DNA of 64,000 nucleotides from an uncultured Gammaproteobacteria bacterium (lineage in GTDB: Bacteria > Patescibacteriota > Microgenomatia > Daviesbacterales > UBA10151). The stretch covers positions 1,545-65,544 of the forward strand of contig CAYMTV010000001.1 in assembly GCA_964393525.1 (NCBI GenBank), given 5' to 3'. The stretch's first letter is position 1; every line of letters begins with the position of its first letter. Shown here piece by piece: positions 8,626 to 63,571 of the stretch. The position numbers were made by a program, and so were the translations under genes. Below the pieces are notes generated by a model. That model saw only the letters and a list, made by a program, of their open reading frames with translations, was not told the origin of the DNA and made no database searches.

Positions 8626-8697
8626 TGCGGGATCGTCTAACGGCAGGACGATAGCCTCTGGAGCTATCTATCTTGGTTCGAATCCAAGTCCCGCAGC
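8626..8697 (+). tRNA. tRNA-Gln (anticodon CUG)
   Basis: Hand-folded cloverleaf. Acceptor TGCGGGA/TCCCGCA with U1-A72, D stem GTCT/GGAC, anticodon stem ATAGC/GCTAT, loop CUCUGGA, T arm CTTGG-TTCGAAT-CCAAG, discriminator G. No encoded CCA. Confidence 0.6.
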
Positions 8698-8708
8698 TTT
8701 GAAAATAA

Positions 8709-8725
8709 ACCACCTATAAAGGGTG
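8709..8725 (+). terminator. Hairpin CCACC-N6-GGGTGG downstream of tRNA-Gln
   Basis: Perfect 5-6 bp inverted repeat followed by an A/T-rich tract. Confidence 0.3.
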
Positions 8726-8814
8726 GTCAATTTTCAAATACGGGATATTTGGATTCTAACCCGCGATTTGCAAAAAAAGTTAGGATAGTTAAATTTCTAT
8801 TTTTACAACTAAAG

Positions 8815-8945
8815 CTTAAGTTTTACTGAAGGAAGCGGGTTCGGCCCTGAGCGAACCTGTGGTGAGCGTAGTCGTACTTCGAGTTCCCTCAGTATGACCC
8901 TGAGTGTTAATCGAATGGGTCGAACCAGTCGAAGGGGGTGTGTTA
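8815..8945. repeat. Structured repeat element, copy A (inverted homolog at 44470-44525)
   Basis: Contains the GGTTCG...CGAACC hairpin, a duplicated CCCTGAG motif, and TCGAATGGGTCGAACC. About 70% identical to the reverse complement of the lon-upstream segment. Confidence 0.5.
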
Positions 8946-8961
8946 TCCAAGTCCCGCAGTT
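8945..8961 (+). repeat. Direct repeat of the tRNA-Gln 3' end (att-like scar)
   Basis: ATCCAAGTCCCGCAG is identical to the last 15 nt of tRNA-Gln and lies 248 bp downstream of it. No T arm or acceptor partner precedes it. Confidence 0.5.
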
Positions 8962-9138
8962 AATTTGTAATATTTCAGCTACAAGCTTGTGTTAATGGCC
9001 CAAAGCTGGTAAAATTAGTTTACTTATTAATGCTAAGAATTTAAGATATAAAAAGCTAAAGCCTTCTGCTTTACTTCTTTTTCTTCCTAAAGTACTTTCA
9101 TTAAAGAATTTAAAAAAGAAAGGCGGTGAAAACTAAAA

Positions 9139-9495
9139 ATGACCAAATTATTTGTTGGGGGTATACCCTATTCACTAACAAATCAAAAGTTGGAAGAAAT
9201 GTTTGCAAAGTTTGGAACGGTAAGTTCAGCGCAGATCATAATGGATAAGTTTACTAACCAAAGCAAAGGGTTCGCTTTTGTAGAAATGCAAAATGACGAT
9301 GAAGCCCAAGCAGCTATCAAAGAACTTGATGGTTACGGTTTGGAAGGGCGCAAAATTGGCGTATCCGTTGCCAGACCCAGAGAAGATCATCAAGGCAATA
9401 GGCAAGGCTTTTCTTCGAATAATAGAAACAACTTTCGGCGTGATAACTTTAGAAAAGGAGGCAGTAGCTTCCTTAGAGGTAGTCACAGAAGATAA
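9139..9495 (+). CDS. RNA-binding protein, single RRM with Gly/Arg-rich tail
   Basis: RNP-2 LFVGGI and RNP-1 KGFAFVEM motifs, with a C-terminal RGG-like tail. Confidence 0.8.
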   Translation: MTKLFVGGIPYSLTNQKLEEMFAKFGTVSSAQIIMDKFTNQSKGFAFVEMQNDDEAQAAIKELDGYGLEGRKIGVSVARPREDHQGNRQGFSSNNRNNFRRDNFRKGGSSFLRGSHRR

Positions 9496-20935: not shown

Positions 20936-21044
20936 CAAGGTTGTTAGCTTTGTATTTATAGCAAAATTACCCTTTTTCCGTCAACTGGAACAAAGTATAA
21001 CAAAGGGTACAGAGAAAAGCGTTCAGCGTACAGTTGATTTTTTC

Positions 21045-21070
21045 AACTATACGCTATACGCTATACGCTG
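21045..21070 (+). promoter_or_regulatory. Conserved upstream motif TTTTTCAACTATACGCTATACGCTA (copy 1), tandem TATACGC x3
   Basis: 25 nt identical to 31441-31465, immediately upstream of the rpiB ATG. Confidence 0.45.
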
Positions 21071-21580
21071 ATGAGAATCTACTTAGCCACTGACCACGCA
21101 GGATTTGAATTTAAAGAAAAAATTAAAGATTTTCTGAAAAAGGAAGGTTTTGAGCTAGAAGATTGCGGAGCTTATGAATATGATAAAGATGATGATTATC
21201 CGGACTTTATCTCCAAGGCGGCAGAAGCTGTCTCAAAAGACCCAGAAAATAGTATGGCAATAGTTTTAGGAGGATCCGGCCAGGGTGAGGCGATTGTCGC
21301 AAATAAGTTCAAAAATGTGAGATGTTCTATTTTTTATGGCCCATTGGTACCAGCTGAAGCCTCAGATATAAGCGGCAGAATCAGTGAGGATCCATTCGAA
21401 ATACTCAGACTTACAAGAGCACATAATAATTCAAACGCTTTATCTTTGGGTGCCAGATTTTTAACTGAAGACCAAGCACTAAAGGCTGTAAAATTTTTTT
21501 TGGAAACGCCATATACCGGTGAAGAAAGACACAAAAGAAGAATAAATAAGGTTAAAGAGATTGAAAAGAATATTTTATGA
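21071..21580 (+). CDS. rpiB: Ribose-5-phosphate isomerase B
   Basis: RpiB/LacAB family. MRIYLATDHAGFEFK, GGSGQGEAIVANK, 169 aa. Confidence 0.85.
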   Translation: MRIYLATDHAGFEFKEKIKDFLKKEGFELEDCGAYEYDKDDDYPDFISKAAEAVSKDPENSMAIVLGGSGQGEAIVANKFKNVRCSIFYGPLVPAEASDISGRISEDPFEILRLTRAHNNSNALSLGARFLTEDQALKAVKFFLETPYTGEERHKRRINKVKEIEKNIL

Positions 21581-31432: not shown

Positions 31433-31440
31433 TTGTTTTT

Positions 31441-31465
31441 TTCAACTATACGCTATACGCTATTA
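31441..31465 (+). promoter_or_regulatory. Conserved upstream motif TTTTTCAACTATACGCTATACGCTA (copy 2)
   Basis: Identical 25-mer to 21045-21069, about 15 nt upstream of the PfkB kinase ATG. Confidence 0.45.
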
Positions 31466-43814: not shown

Positions 43815-44366
43815 ATGGGCTCCAAAAAATTTAAGGAAACTAAAAATGGATTGGTGATTGTTTATACCGGAGAAGGTAAGGGGAAGACTACTGCAGCTTT
43901 GGGTTTGGTTTTAAGAGCTGTGGGGTATAAAAAAAAAGTTTTGATTGTCCAATTTTCCAAAGTTTGGTTTACGGGTGAGGTAGAAGCAGTTAAAAAATTA
44001 GCTCCCTACGTAAAATTGGTCCAGGGGGGTTTGGGGTTTGTCAAAATCCTGGATGATAATGCCAAGCTTTCAGAACATAAAAAAGCTGCCAGTAAGCTTT
44101 ATGAATATTTATATAAGGAAATTACATCGGGCAAATGGGATGTGGTGATAGCAGATGAGATAGTAGGGGCTGTTGCCGGGAATGTTTTAAAACAAACCCA
44201 AGTTAATAAGCTCATTAAAGACAAGCCGGAAAAGCTTGATTTAGTCTTAACAGGACATTACGCTAAGGAAAGCTTAATGAGAAAAGCAGATCTGGTTACA
44301 GAAATGGTCCCGGTCAAACATCCATTTGAAAAAGGCTTTTTAGCCAAAGAGGGCATTGATTATTAA
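43815..44366 (+). CDS. btuR: Cob(I)alamin adenosyltransferase (CobA/BtuR/CobO family)
   Basis: P-loop GEGKGKTTAALGLVLRAVGYKKKVLIVQFSK, 183 aa. Confidence 0.8.
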   Translation: MGSKKFKETKNGLVIVYTGEGKGKTTAALGLVLRAVGYKKKVLIVQFSKVWFTGEVEAVKKLAPYVKLVQGGLGFVKILDDNAKLSEHKKAASKLYEYLYKEITSGKWDVVIADEIVGAVAGNVLKQTQVNKLIKDKPEKLDLVLTGHYAKESLMRKADLVTEMVPVKHPFEKGFLAKEGIDY

Positions 44367-44469
44367 TTATCCTGTAACAATCTTCTTGATCTATTTTTAT
44401 CTAATTATTACAGCAAACTTCTAATATAAGGTATAATGTATTATGAATTACTTTCCAAAATATTAGTAG

Positions 44470-44525
44470 TTGACCCATTCGACTTCGCTCAGGGTTAATA
44501 CTGAGTGAAATTGAAGTATTGACAT
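44470..44525. repeat. Structured repeat element, copy B (inverted relative to 8815-8945)
   Basis: The reverse complement reads CAGTATTAACCCTGAGCGAAGTCGAATGGGTC, matching copy A blocks ACCCTGAG and TCGAATGGGTC. Confidence 0.5.
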
Positions 44526-44555
44526 GACTTAGCACTCATGTTAGGATACTGCTAA
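44519..44555 (+). promoter_or_regulatory. TTGACA-N17-TAGGAT promoter overlapped by CIRCE-like inverted repeat TTAGCACTC-N9-TACTGCTAA
   Basis: The left half matches the CIRCE consensus 9/9 and the right half 7/9. The element ends 5 nt before the lon ATG. Confidence 0.4.
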
Positions 44556-44560
44556 ATTAT

Positions 44561-52454: not shown

Positions 52455-53140
52455 GATTTATTGTTTCACAATATAATTTGGATATGAGTATAGAGATAAA
52501 AATCAGACCGGGGATTACGGAAATTGCTGCTGGGGTAAAAGCCAAAGTAGGACTTCTTAGGCGAAAATTGAGAGATGCGAGCGAAACTGCTCTTCATGAA
52601 ACAGAACACCTCCTAACATTATTACTAAGAAGAAAGGGATTTAGAAGAGCTACAATTAATCCCGGGCCAGGATATCTTGGAATGGTTGAGCCATACGAGT
52701 ATGATGCGCCTTCCTTTGCAGCGCCTGCTGCAAGGTGCCGAGGTGGCGTAGGGCATGATTTGGCTGTTGTTGCAGCTATGGGAGATGATATTGGTATTGC
52801 AAAGTCAGTAGCCAACAGCACCTTAGCTGGAAACGAAAGAAAATTGCTTGTTGTCGCTTCCAGACTAGAGGAAGAAGGTGAAATTACCCAAACTGATGCA
52901 GAGAGAGCTATAGATGATGATGCAAACCCCTTTGCTCGAATTGAGATATTAGGACCTAATGTAAATAGGAAATTTGAACAAAAAACTTGGGAACAGGAAG
53001 GGCATTTAGTAAGTATTGAGTTAGCGGATTTTGAATTAGATAGCCATCCATTGGCAGAAAAAGTGAACGGAAATATATTAACCTTCAGACCGAGAACCGG
53101 TGTTCATCGTTGGCAAGAACCGGAACTGAAAGTTGGCTAG
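52448..53140 (+). CDS. Hypothetical protein with HExxH motif (possible metallopeptidase-like); likely true start ATG 52484
   Basis: ALHETEHLL contains HExxH. There is no other recognisable family signature. GC content looks higher than the neighbours by eye. Ends 1 nt from tRNA-Glu. Confidence 0.45.
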   Translation: MNRFIVSQYNLDMSIEIKIRPGITEIAAGVKAKVGLLRRKLRDASETALHETEHLLTLLLRRKGFRRATINPGPGYLGMVEPYEYDAPSFAAPAARCRGGVGHDLAVVAAMGDDIGIAKSVANSTLAGNERKLLVVASRLEEEGEITQTDAERAIDDDANPFARIEILGPNVNRKFEQKTWEQEGHLVSIELADFELDSHPLAEKVNGNILTFRPRTGVHRWQEPELKVG

Positions 53141-53214
53141 TACCGCGTACGGGAGTCGAACCCGTGATTTCATGGATGAGAACCATGTGTCCTAGGCCAC
53201 TAGACGAACGCGGC
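53141..53214 (-). tRNA. tRNA-Glu (anticodon CUC)
   Basis: Reverse complement GCCGCGTTCGTCTAGTGGCCTAGGACACATGGTTCTCATCCATGAAATCACGGGTTCGACTCCCGTACGCGGTA gives a canonical cloverleaf and is close to E. coli tRNA-Glu. Confidence 0.85.
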
Positions 53215-53270
53215 AAGTCAAACTTGCCAGCCGAGTTTGACTCGGCGGCGTAGAGTAAATTTTAACAAAT
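53213..53270 (-). repeat. ~60-bp hairpin-containing repeat upstream of tRNA-Glu (copy 1)
   Basis: GCAAGTCAAACTTGCCAGCCGAGTTTGACTCGGCGGC...AATTTTAACAAAT. The 36-nt core is identical to 54153-54190. Confidence 0.5.
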
Positions 53271-53293: not shown

Positions 53294-54040
53294 TTAATAT
53301 TTTAAAGGTGGGGTTTTTGGAAATGGTCTTCTATTTTCTGGAAGGAGATCAGCGATACTTGTTTGAATTAATAAAGCAGGCTGGGATAATTGCTTTAAAT
53401 ATTCTTCTTCTGAAAGAGATCTTCTTTGTTTTCTTAAATCATGCCATGGACTTAAATCTAAGTTTGGTCCAGTTTTGACAATAATTTTTTCTGGTTTAGG
53501 TAATATAGCTCCTGGAGGTAAAGCTTCATATGTTCCAATTTGGACTAAGGGAAATGATGGTGTGCCTTGTCTGGAAGCTTCAATAGCGAGTAACACTAGA
53601 GTCTGATTCATGGAGCCTAATCTTCCGCTCCTGCTTCTAGTACCTTCGGGTGCTATACATATAGTTCTCCCGTGTCTTAATTCATCCAAGATCCTTCTCA
53701 CGGCGGCTAGATCCTGGCCATTTCTATTAACATAAATGGCACCCCATTGATTTAACATCCAGCCAACAACTGGAATTTTTCCCATAGATTCTTTTACAAC
53801 CATGGTTGTGGTGGGGTTGTGATAGGGATCAGCTACCATTGAGGCAATTGTATCAAGTAAGCTAAAATGAGAGGTAAGAGCAATAGCCGGGCCTTTCTTT
53901 GGTAAACTGGGATCAAAGTCAACTTCCAGTTTATGGTAAAAGCTCATATAAGCTCCCAAGACTCCTTTCATTATTTTTTGGGCTGGTTTGTCTAAATTTG
54001 GATTTGGTTGTTTGGAAGTTGGATTTAGTCTTTCACCCAT
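53294..54040 (-). CDS. plsC: 1-acyl-sn-glycerol-3-phosphate acyltransferase
   Basis: HFSLLD (HX4D) and IAPEGTRS motifs, 248 aa. Confidence 0.8.
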   Translation of the reverse strand: MGERLNPTSKQPNPNLDKPAQKIMKGVLGAYMSFYHKLEVDFDPSLPKKGPAIALTSHFSLLDTIASMVADPYHNPTTTMVVKESMGKIPVVGWMLNQWGAIYVNRNGQDLAAVRRILDELRHGRTICIAPEGTRSRSGRLGSMNQTLVLLAIEASRQGTPSFPLVQIGTYEALPPGAILPKPEKIIVKTGPNLDLSPWHDLRKQRRSLSEEEYLKQLSQPALLIQTSIADLLPENRRPFPKTPPLKY

Positions 54041-54152: not shown

Positions 54153-54213
54153 GCAAGTCAAACTTGCCAGCCGAGTTTGACTCGGCGGCTTGAGAGAACA
54201 ATTTTAACAAATC
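54153..54213 (-). repeat. ~60-bp hairpin-containing repeat (copy 2)
   Basis: Same 36-nt core and AATTTTAACAAAT tail as 53213-53270. Confidence 0.5.
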
Positions 54214-63418: not shown

Positions 63419-63427
63419 GTCTCTATT

Positions 63428-63525
63428 TATTTCCGAAGGAAAGAGGCCGAATGGACTCATTTCCAAAGGAAAGAACTTGTTCATTTCCGAAGGAAAGAGG
63501 CCGAATGGACTCATTTCCGAAGGAA
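63428..63525 (+). repeat. Tandem direct repeats (30-bp unit x2 plus degenerate copies; 4x ATTTCCRAAGGAAA core)
   Basis: ATTTCCGAAGGAAAGAGGCCGAATGGACTC occurs at 63428 and 63482. The core 13-mer recurs at 63458 and 63512. Confidence 0.55.
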
Positions 63526-63571
63526 AAAAGCTGTGCTTTATTTCTCGGGGATTTTTTATTATTGTTTGTTA

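Follow-up and report, generated by a model that had tools for sequence, protein, structure and literature searches.

Two short stretches of a 64-kb window (the whole 64,000-nt stretch of contig CAYMTV010000001.1 that was analysed) carry related sequences, copy A downstream of a tRNA-Gln gene and copy B, in inverted orientation, upstream of the protease gene lon. It is likely that both are members of a family of very small, non-autonomous palindromic mobile elements, resembling REPINs (inverted doublets of repetitive extragenic palindromes, REPs), MITEs (miniature transposable elements with inverted repeats) and Rickettsia palindromic elements (RPEs), which would be selfish and would move as single-stranded DNA in a peel-and-paste fashion. 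The site of copy B is empty in relatives, the copies are dispersed, insertion within reading frames is tolerated, no position is conserved and no Rfam family matches; together these observations point to selfish, non-autonomous mobile DNA. At neither window site does the element appear to have a dedicated host function, and it probably has no consequence for the host, since the core promoter of lon is intact and copy A lies in a scar without genes.

The source contig measures 144.7 kb. The window is AT-rich (GC 0.39), and its proteins are closest to those named Candidatus Daviesbacteria, of the candidate phyla radiation (CPR)/Microgenomates group. The regions around both copies are reproduced base for base in independent Logan assemblies from two sequencing runs (L001, L002 and L330), and are thus not an assembly artefact.

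Similarity of the two copies

When positions 8700-8960 are aligned by Smith-Waterman to 44380-44560 in reverse complement, 43 of 53 columns are identical and the score is 49, compared with 17.9 +/- 2.5 (maximum 28) for 500 shuffles. In a blastn search of 8815-8945 against both strands of the whole window, the match is to 44518-44472, with 81% identity over 48 nt and E = 1.2e-5. Besides region A itself only copy B is matched in the window, the next hit has E > 3, and the reciprocal search agrees. A profile hidden Markov model (HMM) built from 51 members in other genomes recovers copy A with E = 8e-15 and copy B with E = 2e-14, and finds no third copy in the window and none in the syntenic loci of relatives.

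An earlier note on this DNA, made from the letters alone, had put the resemblance at roughly 70% identity over about 55 nt. The similarity is real and slightly better than that, at about 81% over 48-53 nt, and it exceeds that of shuffled sequences. The identical blocks ACCCTGAG and TCGAATGGGTC, with flanking TACTTC, are present in the sequence, as is the internal duplication in copy A (GGCCCTGAGCGAACC at 8843-8857, and GACCCTGAG...GGGTCGAACC at 8897-8926). The stable hairpins that it described are borne out in part: copy B on the plus strand folds better than shuffles (z = -3.15 as RNA, -2.2 as DNA), and region A as a whole does not (z of about -0.5). What the note missed are the boundaries of the units, the 48-49 nt being two inverted hairpin units of about 24 nt each, as well as the nesting of copy A in an older unit and the complementarity between the centre of the element and its flanks.

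Copy B at the lon promoter

Copy B lies in the 194-nt spacer between the gene for cob(I)alamin adenosyltransferase (cobA, 43815-44366) and lon. In four related genomes (L124, L308, L315 and L318/L319, with CobA 72-79% identical) the cobA-lon spacer is uninterrupted and the site is empty. These relatives read TTGAC(A/T)-N4-TTAGCACTC-N9-T(T/A)CTGCTA(A/G)...ATG, that is, a -35 box and a CIRCE-like operator followed by lon. The window reads TAGTAG-TTGAC-(CCATTCGACTTCGCTCAGGGTTAATACTGAGTGAAATTGAAGTA-TTGAC)-ATGAC-TTAGCACTC, where the parentheses enclose 49 extra nucleotides. As the relatives lack these 49 nt and the window has TTGAC twice, copy B must have been inserted in the lineage of the window. 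Comparison of the sequences thus shows an insertion at TTGAC, the start of the -35 box of the predicted lon promoter, by which TTGAC was duplicated. The copy is present and identical in L330, an independent assembly of the same population.

In full, copy B on the plus strand is C-CATTCGA-CTTCG-CTCAG-GGTTAATAC-TGAG-TGAAA-TTGAAG-TA-TTGAC. The right TTGAC forms its last five bases and at the same time the start of the lon -35 box. Because this right TTGAC completes TTGACA-17-TAGGAT, the core promoter and the operator of lon are intact, with the element immediately upstream. A further consequence of a position upstream of the -35 box is that the lon promoter does not transcribe copy B.

The earlier note had placed this copy in a heat-shock promoter region, which agrees with the CIRCE-like operator upstream of lon. 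The CIRCE consensus is the inverted repeat TTAGCACTC-N9-GAGTGCTAA, found at heat-shock promoters. The operator matches it at nine of nine positions in the left half and seven of nine in the right half (TACTGCTAA), with a spacer of 9 nt, overlaps the spacer and -10 region of the lon promoter, and is conserved in relatives. As an observation apart from the element, its conservation at lon in the window and in the Daviesbacteria sequences L124, L308 and L315 suggests that HrcA may control lon in the Daviesbacteria lineage of the CPR.

Copy A in a cluster of hairpin units

On the minus strand, copy A reads C-CATTCGA-TTAACA-CTCAG-GGTCATAC-TGAG-GGAAC-TCGAAG-TA-CGAC, preceded by GGTTCGAC and followed by TACGCTCACC. 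GTCG (8871-8874) flanks the copy, and its own last four bases in plus-strand order (8919-8922) repeat GTCG. Excision of 8875-8922 restores GGTGAGCGTAGTCGAACC, a complete unit of a broader hairpin type with the stem GGT/ACC and the loop GAGC-N4-TCGA. It would appear, on inspection of the sequence, that copy A was inserted, within a cluster of repeats, into an older unit of its own super-family, at the GTCG(A) of that hairpin.

Other genomes hold twelve A-type copies, almost identical to copy A, that share its nesting point within CCC-TGAG-N4-GTCG|AA-GGG units; their outer units differ among themselves. The shared nesting point implies that the A-type sub-lineage, or its composite, targets the TCGAC of the family's own loop.

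Duplications of the tRNA-Gln 3' end bracket 248 nt (8697-8944), and the cluster around copy A lies at the right end of this segment. The segment contains no gene; no integrase or cargo genes are found between the 15-nt repeats, and the sole open reading frame (ORF) is a 44-aa frame across the repeats. The two 15-nt copies of ATCCAAGTCCCGCAG (8682-8696 and 8945-8959) are identical at 15 of 15 positions, so that the tRNA-associated scar in which the earlier note had placed this copy is there, with the tRNA 3' end duplicated exactly. Direct repetition of a tRNA 3' end is what an integrase usually leaves when it inserts DNA into a tRNA gene, and the segment looks like the att-like scar of an integrative element, to judge from its sequence. 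A decayed second tRNA-Gln between the repeats was considered as well and rejected, the best local alignment to the tRNA being no better than for shuffles.

Family census and architecture

The pattern CATTCGA-N4-7-CTCAGGGT-N1-5-ACTGAG, which A and B both match, was searched in one genome per species (185,579 species, 596 Gb). Sixty loci, in roughly 45 carrier species, were found, where about five are expected by chance at uniform base composition (from 21 specified bases, 20 gap combinations and two strands over 596 Gb). The carriers in the CPR are Daviesbacteria, Levybacteria, Curtissbacteria, Woesebacteria, Yanofskybacteria, Saccharibacteria, Paceibacterota and other Patescibacteria. The others are Omnitrophota (seven loci in one metagenome-assembled genome, MAG), MAGs of uncultured Gammaproteobacteria, Planctomycetia, Syntrophaceae, Elusimicrobia, Nitrospirota and Verrucomicrobiae. 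There is no match to the family pattern in the IMG/VR viral contigs, and a looser pattern, CTCAGGGT-N-TACTGAG, has only chance matches there. The right half of the element that carries the second arm was not part of the search pattern; it could be located in 58 of 62 copies, in 41 of them as TCGAAGT and in the remainder as close variants (CCGAAGT, TCGAATGT, TTGAAGT, TCGAAGC and the like).

The general layout of the element is t | CC-CATTCGA-N4-6-CTCAG | GG-t'-AC | TGAG-N4-5-TCGAAG-T(A/G) | t. Here t is the flanking direct repeat, 4-8 nt long depending on the copy, and t', in the centre, is its reverse complement. A single loop motif, TGAG-N-TCGAA(G/T), on opposite strands makes up both conserved blocks, and all 62 copies are inverted doublets of this motif. 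The shared flanks cluster around TYRAC (TTGAC, TCAAC, TCGAC, ATGAC, CCAAC and TTAAC). Fourteen centre variants occur (13 without the chance match L283), among them GGTCAATAC, GGTTGATAC, GGTTGACAC, GGTCGTAC, GGTCATAC, GGTTGGCAC and GGTTAATAC, and members of the family are matched by their own flanks.

The covariation between centre and flanks is extensive, with two to four Watson-Crick pair types at each paired position and few mismatches. At position 5 of the right arm, for example, the 58 copies have CG in 24 cases, GC in 22, AT in ten and TA in two, with no mismatches. The longest exact complement of the centre averages 5.8 nt in the left flank and 6.5 nt in the right, as against 3.6 and 3.7 nt when a centre is set against flanks taken from other copies. 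CATTCGA..CTCAG and CTGAG..TCGAAG, the conserved blocks, are inverted copies of one another that pair in copy B and in A-type copies, the variable inner parts being without covariation. These complementarities mean that the centre can pair with either flank, or the conserved blocks with each other, and in predicted folds different copies prefer different ones of these three pairings. Each strand shows the conserved loop on exactly one hairpin, which makes the doublet two-fold symmetric.

There are also departures from the basic form. At a Saccharibacteria locus (L261) identical units follow one another head to tail every 48 nt. One sub-lineage has a small CGGCG...CGCCG hairpin in place of the variable part of one loop, and one copy has another unit nested at that place.

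The earlier note had proposed a dispersed family of MITE or REP type, which is confirmed in so far as many genomes hold more copies and copy B is, compared with four relatives, an insertion with a duplicated TTGAC. Of the signs by which it would have such a family recognised, these have been found: further copies in other genomes (the 60 loci of the species-genome scan, with the significance of the A-B alignment upheld against shuffled controls), a target-site duplication (TTGAC at copy B) and covariance across copies (of the centre with both flanking direct repeats).

Genomic placement and in-frame insertions

Among the 62 copies, 39 lie between called ORFs, four are found where contigs end and 19 overlap with such an ORF; the ORF calling was crude, and these 19 include the chance match L283 and several short spurious ORFs made by the repeats themselves. 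The genes flanking the 39 intergenic copies are in tandem in 25 cases, convergent in seven and divergent in seven. Neither copy in the window is intragenic.

Several conserved proteins contain the element in frame. The prolidase at L272 has 37 residues without counterpart in PDB 3q6d, exactly at a repeat cluster, and PolX at L291 has about 20 residues more than 3au2, at the element. RecF, a MacB-like ABC protein, a XerC-like integrase/recombinase and an intein-containing protein also have in-frame copies. Inserted blocks that were counted are multiples of three, namely 48 nt for the canonical A-type and 63 nt in the L291 PolX gene, and in one orientation the same reading frame (...STHS...) is used each time. 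In a Daviesbacteria ORF with an intein splicing domain (L253, 5970-7652) the copy lies in the intein region, so that one mobile element is found inside another.

A tRNA or transfer-messenger RNA (tmRNA) gene is located within about 500 nt of the element at about six of the 60 loci, so association with tRNA genes is not a general rule for the family. In two other Daviesbacteria sequences a cluster of such hairpin units begins right at the 3' end of a tRNA gene, tRNA-Gln in L305 (5540-5640, minus strand) and tRNA-Ala in L292 (3900-4045, minus strand). It may be that tRNA 3' flanks are a preferred landing or accumulation zone for the units in the Daviesbacteria lineage.

Comparison with known systems

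Among the closest analogues of the family are mobile elements that are handled as single strands. In the IS200/IS605 insertion sequences (ISs) and in the REP/RAYT system (RAYT, REP-associated tyrosine transposase), a Y1 HUH enzyme binds hairpins and its cleavage sites are chosen by pairing with an internal guide; one copy of the site is kept at the 3' end, and in-frame REP insertions have been described (PMC6006769). REPs are short imperfect palindromes, often in inverted doublets that fold into a larger hairpin (PMC6006769, PMC3733652), and like the present element they are non-autonomous, dispersed, mostly intergenic and sometimes in frame, with an internal guide (in the present element a putative one) that pairs with the cleavage site. 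Unlike REPs, the element has no GTAG/GTGG or CGTC tetranucleotide at the foot of its hairpins. GTAG is found only in some variable loop segments (CGTAG), where other copies have CTTG, CCTG, CAAAG or TGGAA, and an assignment to the GTAG- or CGTC-tagged REPs was rejected for lack of the tag. In the element, moreover, the loop is conserved and the stem is free, whereas in REPs it is the stem that is conserved within a genome; REPs are species-specific, whereas the element is low in copy number (two in 64 kb) and spread across phyla. A RAYT gene was not found for the element with a crude HUH-W-Y regular expression on partial genomes.

With IS200/IS605 elements and their miniature derivatives, the palindrome-associated transposable elements (PATEs), the family would share a short, specific target recognised by pairing with an internal segment, and a 3' end with a copy-like cleavage site, as a result of which occupied sites resemble short direct repeats. 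Hairpins rather than double-stranded ends would be recognised, and a precise excision would leave the site empty again. The family differs in that a single central segment complements both flanks, in its length of 48 nt, far below that of described members, and in the absence of any associated TnpA or TnpB gene.

RPEs are likewise palindromic selfish DNA found in frame in conserved proteins, to which they add a short peptide loop, as the present element does in prolidase and PolX. They are about 100-150 bp long, presumably of other sequences and confined to Rickettsia, whereas the present family is 48-63 nt long and occurs in CPR bacteria, Omnitrophota, Planctomycetia and others. RPE-4 and RPE-6 have been classed as CGTC-tagged REPs (PMC3733652).

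A rare class 3 of Y1 enzymes, the REPtron-like family of Planctomycetes, Acidobacteria and Legionella, is associated with high-copy hairpins beginning C(n)GAGC (Quentin et al. 2018, PMC6006769). These atypical hairpins with a CnGAG head (for example CTGAGCCGCGACCGTGAGGAAGCGG; PMC6006769) recall the CTGAGC head seen here, in overlapping taxa. They have a 4-nt GTnA loop on an interrupted 8-bp stem, unlike the conserved loop of 13-16 nt in the element, and no class 3 gene was detected in the sequences examined. The bacterial MITEs Correia, RUP and ERIC are also small non-coding insertions with inverted-repeat ends and short duplications, which land in promoters and alter or supply promoter elements. 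They differ in size (about 100-500 bp), in a fixed length of duplication, in having the ends of known ISs and in showing no complementarity between centre and duplication.

Other candidates were rejected. The consensus boxes of integron attC sites are RYYYAAC and GTTRRRY, and by-eye comparison with the copies did not find the R'/R'' boxes. Neither the K-turn nor the hammerhead consensus fits the loop by eye. A DNA uptake sequence, considered for the ComEC/ComEA genes beside a few copies, is ruled out by the discrete 48-nt insertions. TIGR arrays, which were considered for the CPR hosts and the tandem hairpins, have 36-nt units with two variable spacers between UG...CCA boxes and lie beside a Tas (Nop-domain) gene (PMC12045711); the 48-nt period and identical units at L261 and the absence of the motifs argue against them. 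In its workings the family resembles a REPIN or a miniature element of IS200/IS605 type, and within genes it behaves as RPEs do, but it departs from each of them in defining features; it belongs with the small palindromic mobile repeats of bacteria. In the searchable (incomplete) literature, no description of it was found by DNA motif, encoded peptide or keyword, the matches to motifs and peptides being primers and unrelated proteins.

Proposed mechanism and alternative explanations

A mechanism consistent with these features is one in which the element moves as single-stranded DNA, peel-and-paste like IS200/IS605 and REP/RAYT. An enzyme supplied in trans would recognise the conserved loops, and the centre t' would act as a guide, base-pairing both to the target and to the terminal t of the element itself. 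Such guide pairing would account for a target duplication that is complementary to the centre, and for its variable length. The single central guide would serve both ends, and the excised strand could close into a perfect dumbbell; the junction expected in a circle or tandem is TCGAAGT(A)-t-CCCATTCGA.

An origin as a classical MITE is rather unlikely. The element would then be a deletion derivative of an IS with a DDE transposase, its conserved blocks would be terminal inverted repeats (TIRs) and the flanking repeat would be an ordinary target-site duplication. This would accommodate the 5-bp duplication of TTGAC at copy B and the fact that the blocks are imperfect inverted repeats of about 15-17 nt, which form one long hairpin in copy B and in A-type copies. 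Yet nearly all copies have a duplicated sequence complementary to their centre, which a random target duplication would not produce, and the shared flank ranges from 4 to 8 nt between copies instead of being fixed. A flank that is complementary to the centre and variable in length is not the footprint of a DDE transposase and fits single-strand elements. In addition, the variable parts of the two putative TIRs show no mutual covariation (as at L245), 48 nt is below the usual size of MITEs, and no related full-length IS or transposase is seen beside any of the 60 copies (118 flanking ORFs). The complementarity of the centre to host-derived flanks, even in conserved coding sequence, could also be produced if only the loops were templated, by an RNA or oligonucleotide, and the stem arms were copied from the target by fold-back or target-primed synthesis. 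The stems of single units and doublets are indeed very diverse while the loops are constant, and the overlap varies in length as with microhomology priming. Such target-templated insertion of hairpins is nonetheless improbable, and we know of no bacterial precedent. Flanks that cluster around TYRAC are not arbitrary, no reverse transcriptase or similar gene was seen nearby, and the imperfect centre GGTCATAC (against TCGAC arms) is common to copy A and L248 in spite of their different outer units, a mild argument that the centre is inherited rather than copied anew.

A functional structured RNA or cis-regulatory module shared by the downstream region of tRNA-Gln and the upstream region of lon (a small RNA, a hairpin bound by a protein, a terminator or a stabiliser) has little probability. 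The conserved loop of 13-16 nt on covarying stems would be expected of one, as would the CGGCG...CGCCG hairpin that replaces a variable loop segment in one sub-lineage, since RNA families show such replacements, and the fold of copy B on the plus strand (z = -3.15). The element is absent, however, from the same promoter region in four relatives, copy B lies upstream of the lon -35 box, and region A, taken whole, has a fold no better than that of shuffles. Relative to the neighbouring genes the copies have every orientation, they are translated in frame in conserved proteins, and the two-fold symmetry of the doublet leaves no strand preference. Scans of Rfam 15, at the gathering threshold over the window and at lax thresholds over 8690-9140 and a unit-rich viral locus, returned two tRNAs only and otherwise noise. 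The shared small-RNA or regulatory module that the earlier note had also considered is not upheld by these results, namely the absence from the orthologous promoter, the position upstream of -35, the mixed orientations, the in-frame copies and the lack of an Rfam match. Least probable by far is that there is no repeat family at all and that A and B are GC-rich patches alike by chance, or the att-site arms of a lost integrative element. The window holds only two copies, and copy A lies inside a segment bracketed by the 15-nt duplication of the tRNA-Gln 3' end, as this would predict. Copy B, by contrast, is far from any tRNA or att-like repeat and is a clean 49-nt insertion; with a window-wide E = 1e-5 and sixty more loci of the same architecture, chance as the explanation of the A-B similarity is refuted.

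Some observations weigh against the preferred reading of a selfish element moving as single-stranded DNA. No mobilising enzyme has been linked to it: the Pfam families of the 118 ORFs beside the copies (8-kb flanks) are those of ordinary housekeeping genes, and the crude HUH-W-Y expression has no match among 8,039 ORFs in 2.6 Mb of partial genomes. The geometry differs from that of IS608, with one central guide-like segment here rather than a guide 5' of each end hairpin, and the element has no conserved GTAG or CGTC tag. An empty site for copy A was not recovered, synteny downstream of gltX not being conserved in the relatives fetched, and with only two copies in 64 kb there is no sign of recent bursts in the genome of the window. 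The taxon labels of the MAGs are those of the record titles alone. Covarying stems with a conserved loop are also what is expected of a selected RNA or single-stranded DNA hairpin, and the data fit both a guide that is carried by the element and a centre that is copied from the target at insertion.

A broader super-family of hairpins

The older units around copy A raise the subject of related hairpins elsewhere. A relaxed scan of viral contigs with CCCTGAG-N3-9-TCGAANGGG gives, among the matches listed, many that are chance or coding sequence, together with a distinct group in which the spacers are GC(C/T)TG or GCG(T/A)AG. That group often occurs as tandem units of 24 nt (cctgCCCTGAGCTTGTCGAACGGG) or with long, perfectly complementary but unrelated stems. 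Translated arrays of the units give peptides such as PALSLSKG, CPELVEG, PLRQAQGR, PFDKLRAG and PSTSSGQA, and peptides of the PELVEG, LSLSKG and FDKLRA type are, we presume, common in spurious "hypothetical proteins" of many phyla. Queries this short gave no information in BLAST searches of plasmids (generic unit) and of phages (A-type composite). On sequence grounds the doublets look like the version, in AT-rich genomes, of a hairpin with a conserved loop and a free stem.

A bolder interpretation is possible, although we hold it only tentatively. The family could be the smallest known bacterial mobile DNA, a symmetric hairpin of 48 nt whose central 4-8 nt are a changeable guide that chooses the insertion site or is copied from it. 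It would be spread over distant phyla (CPR, Omnitrophota, Planctomycetia, Elusimicrobia and others), with an enzyme yet to be linked to it, and it would form part of a much larger, undescribed pan-bacterial super-family, CCCTGAGC-N3-4-GTCGAAGGG, which would also account for the spurious PELVEG, LSLSKG and FDKLRA peptides of genome annotations.

Features of the two regions and other repeats

The features of both regions are listed in Table 1. Region A lies between the tRNA-Gln(CTG) gene and a gene for an RRM-type RNA-binding protein (9139-9495), with gltX and a pterin-4a-carbinolamine dehydratase gene upstream. It includes a GC-rich island (8810-8959) with a GC content of 0.52-0.57, compared with 0.25-0.38 in its flanks. 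The 44-aa ORF on the minus strand (8816-8950; MDNTPPSTGSTHS...) is a by-product of the repeats across the region and should not be called as a gene. In the closest GltX relative with a gene map (P0122, 76% identity; JGI 3300071358), a 90-aa GIY-YIG gene follows the pterin dehydratase gene. This spot, with tRNA-Gln and the scar in the window and the GIY-YIG gene in P0122, is variable and may host mobile DNA.

Table 1. Positions in the window of copies A and B and of the features around them
Feature	Position	Strand	Basis
tRNA-Gln, anticodon CTG, intact	8626..8697	+	ARAGORN; Rfam tRNA, 57.9 bits
First copy of the 15-nt direct repeat ATCCAAGTCCCGCAG, the tRNA-Gln 3' end	8682..8696	+	Sequence
Degenerate hairpin unit GGTTCG-GCCCTGAG-CGAACC; head of generic unit, truncated loop	8838..8857	+	Sequence; predicted stem; comparison with generic unit
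Left part of older generic hairpin unit, GGTGAGCGTAGTCG, continuing at 8923-8926 (AACC)	8861..8874	+	Sequence
Copy A, 48-nt inverted doublet	8875..8922	-	blastn; nhmmer; profile HMM; family pattern
Right part of split outer unit (AACC, 8923-8926), then partial unit AGTCGAAGGGGG (8927-8938)	8923..8938	+	Sequence
Second copy of the 15-nt tRNA-Gln 3'-end repeat, attR-like (right end of integrated element)	8945..8959	+	Sequence
Left copy of duplicated target TTGAC	44470..44474	+	Alignment with relatives lacking the insertion
Copy B, 49-nt insertion	44475..44523	+	Absent in relatives, present in L330; profile HMM
Predicted lon promoter, TTGACA-17 nt-TAGGAT, TG-extended	44519..44547	+	Promoter scan, 10/12 matches; layout kept in relatives
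CIRCE-like operator, TTAGCACTC-N9-TACTGCTAA	44529..44555	+	Sequence; conserved in L124, L308 and L315
lon protease gene, 801 aa	44561..46966	+	ORF list; Lon Pfam domains on the L124 orthologue

Some short-read contigs end in or beside the repeats. Contig L002 starts at 8898, exactly at CCCTGAG, and L001 starts at 8669; near copy B, L331 ends about 30 nt before the copy and L123 about 100 nt after cobA. This suggests that the hairpin units break assemblies.

Other repeats occur elsewhere in the window. A perfect 37-nt direct repeat, GCAAGTCAAACTTGCCAGCCGAGTTTGACTCGGCGGC, is present at 53213-53249 and 54153-54189, and its first copy starts at the 5' end of a tRNA-Glu gene (53140-53214, minus strand). 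The intervening 900 nt or so hold a 248-aa ORF (53294-54040, minus strand) that by eye resembles PlsC-type acyltransferases, and the pair of repeats may mark a further tRNA gene at which DNA was inserted or duplicated. A 31-nt sequence, TTG(A/T)TTTTTTCAACTATACGCTATACGCTAT, occurs twice with 97% identity (21034-21064 and 31433-31463), each time in a short spacer directly upstream of a plus-strand ORF (starts at 21071 and 31481), and may be a shared promoter or operator. At 63426-63533 a 54-nt unit (TTTATTTCCGAAGGAAAGAGGCCGAATGGACTCATTTCC...) is tandemly duplicated with 91% identity.

Biological implications

Mobile elements are regarded as scarce in the tiny genomes of CPR bacteria. An element of 48 nt in promoters and conserved reading frames indicates that selfish DNA still enters these reduced genomes. 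Gene exchange between the phyla that carry the element is rare, so its shared presence speaks for horizontal transfer within the communities of groundwater and sediment. For genome annotation, recognition of the family avoids false gene calls, accounts for some contig breaks and flags peptide insertions in conserved proteins. The complementarity between centre and flanks is a simple, testable targeting rule, and if a dedicated enzyme were found, the family would be a minimal nucleic-acid-guided system for DNA insertion.

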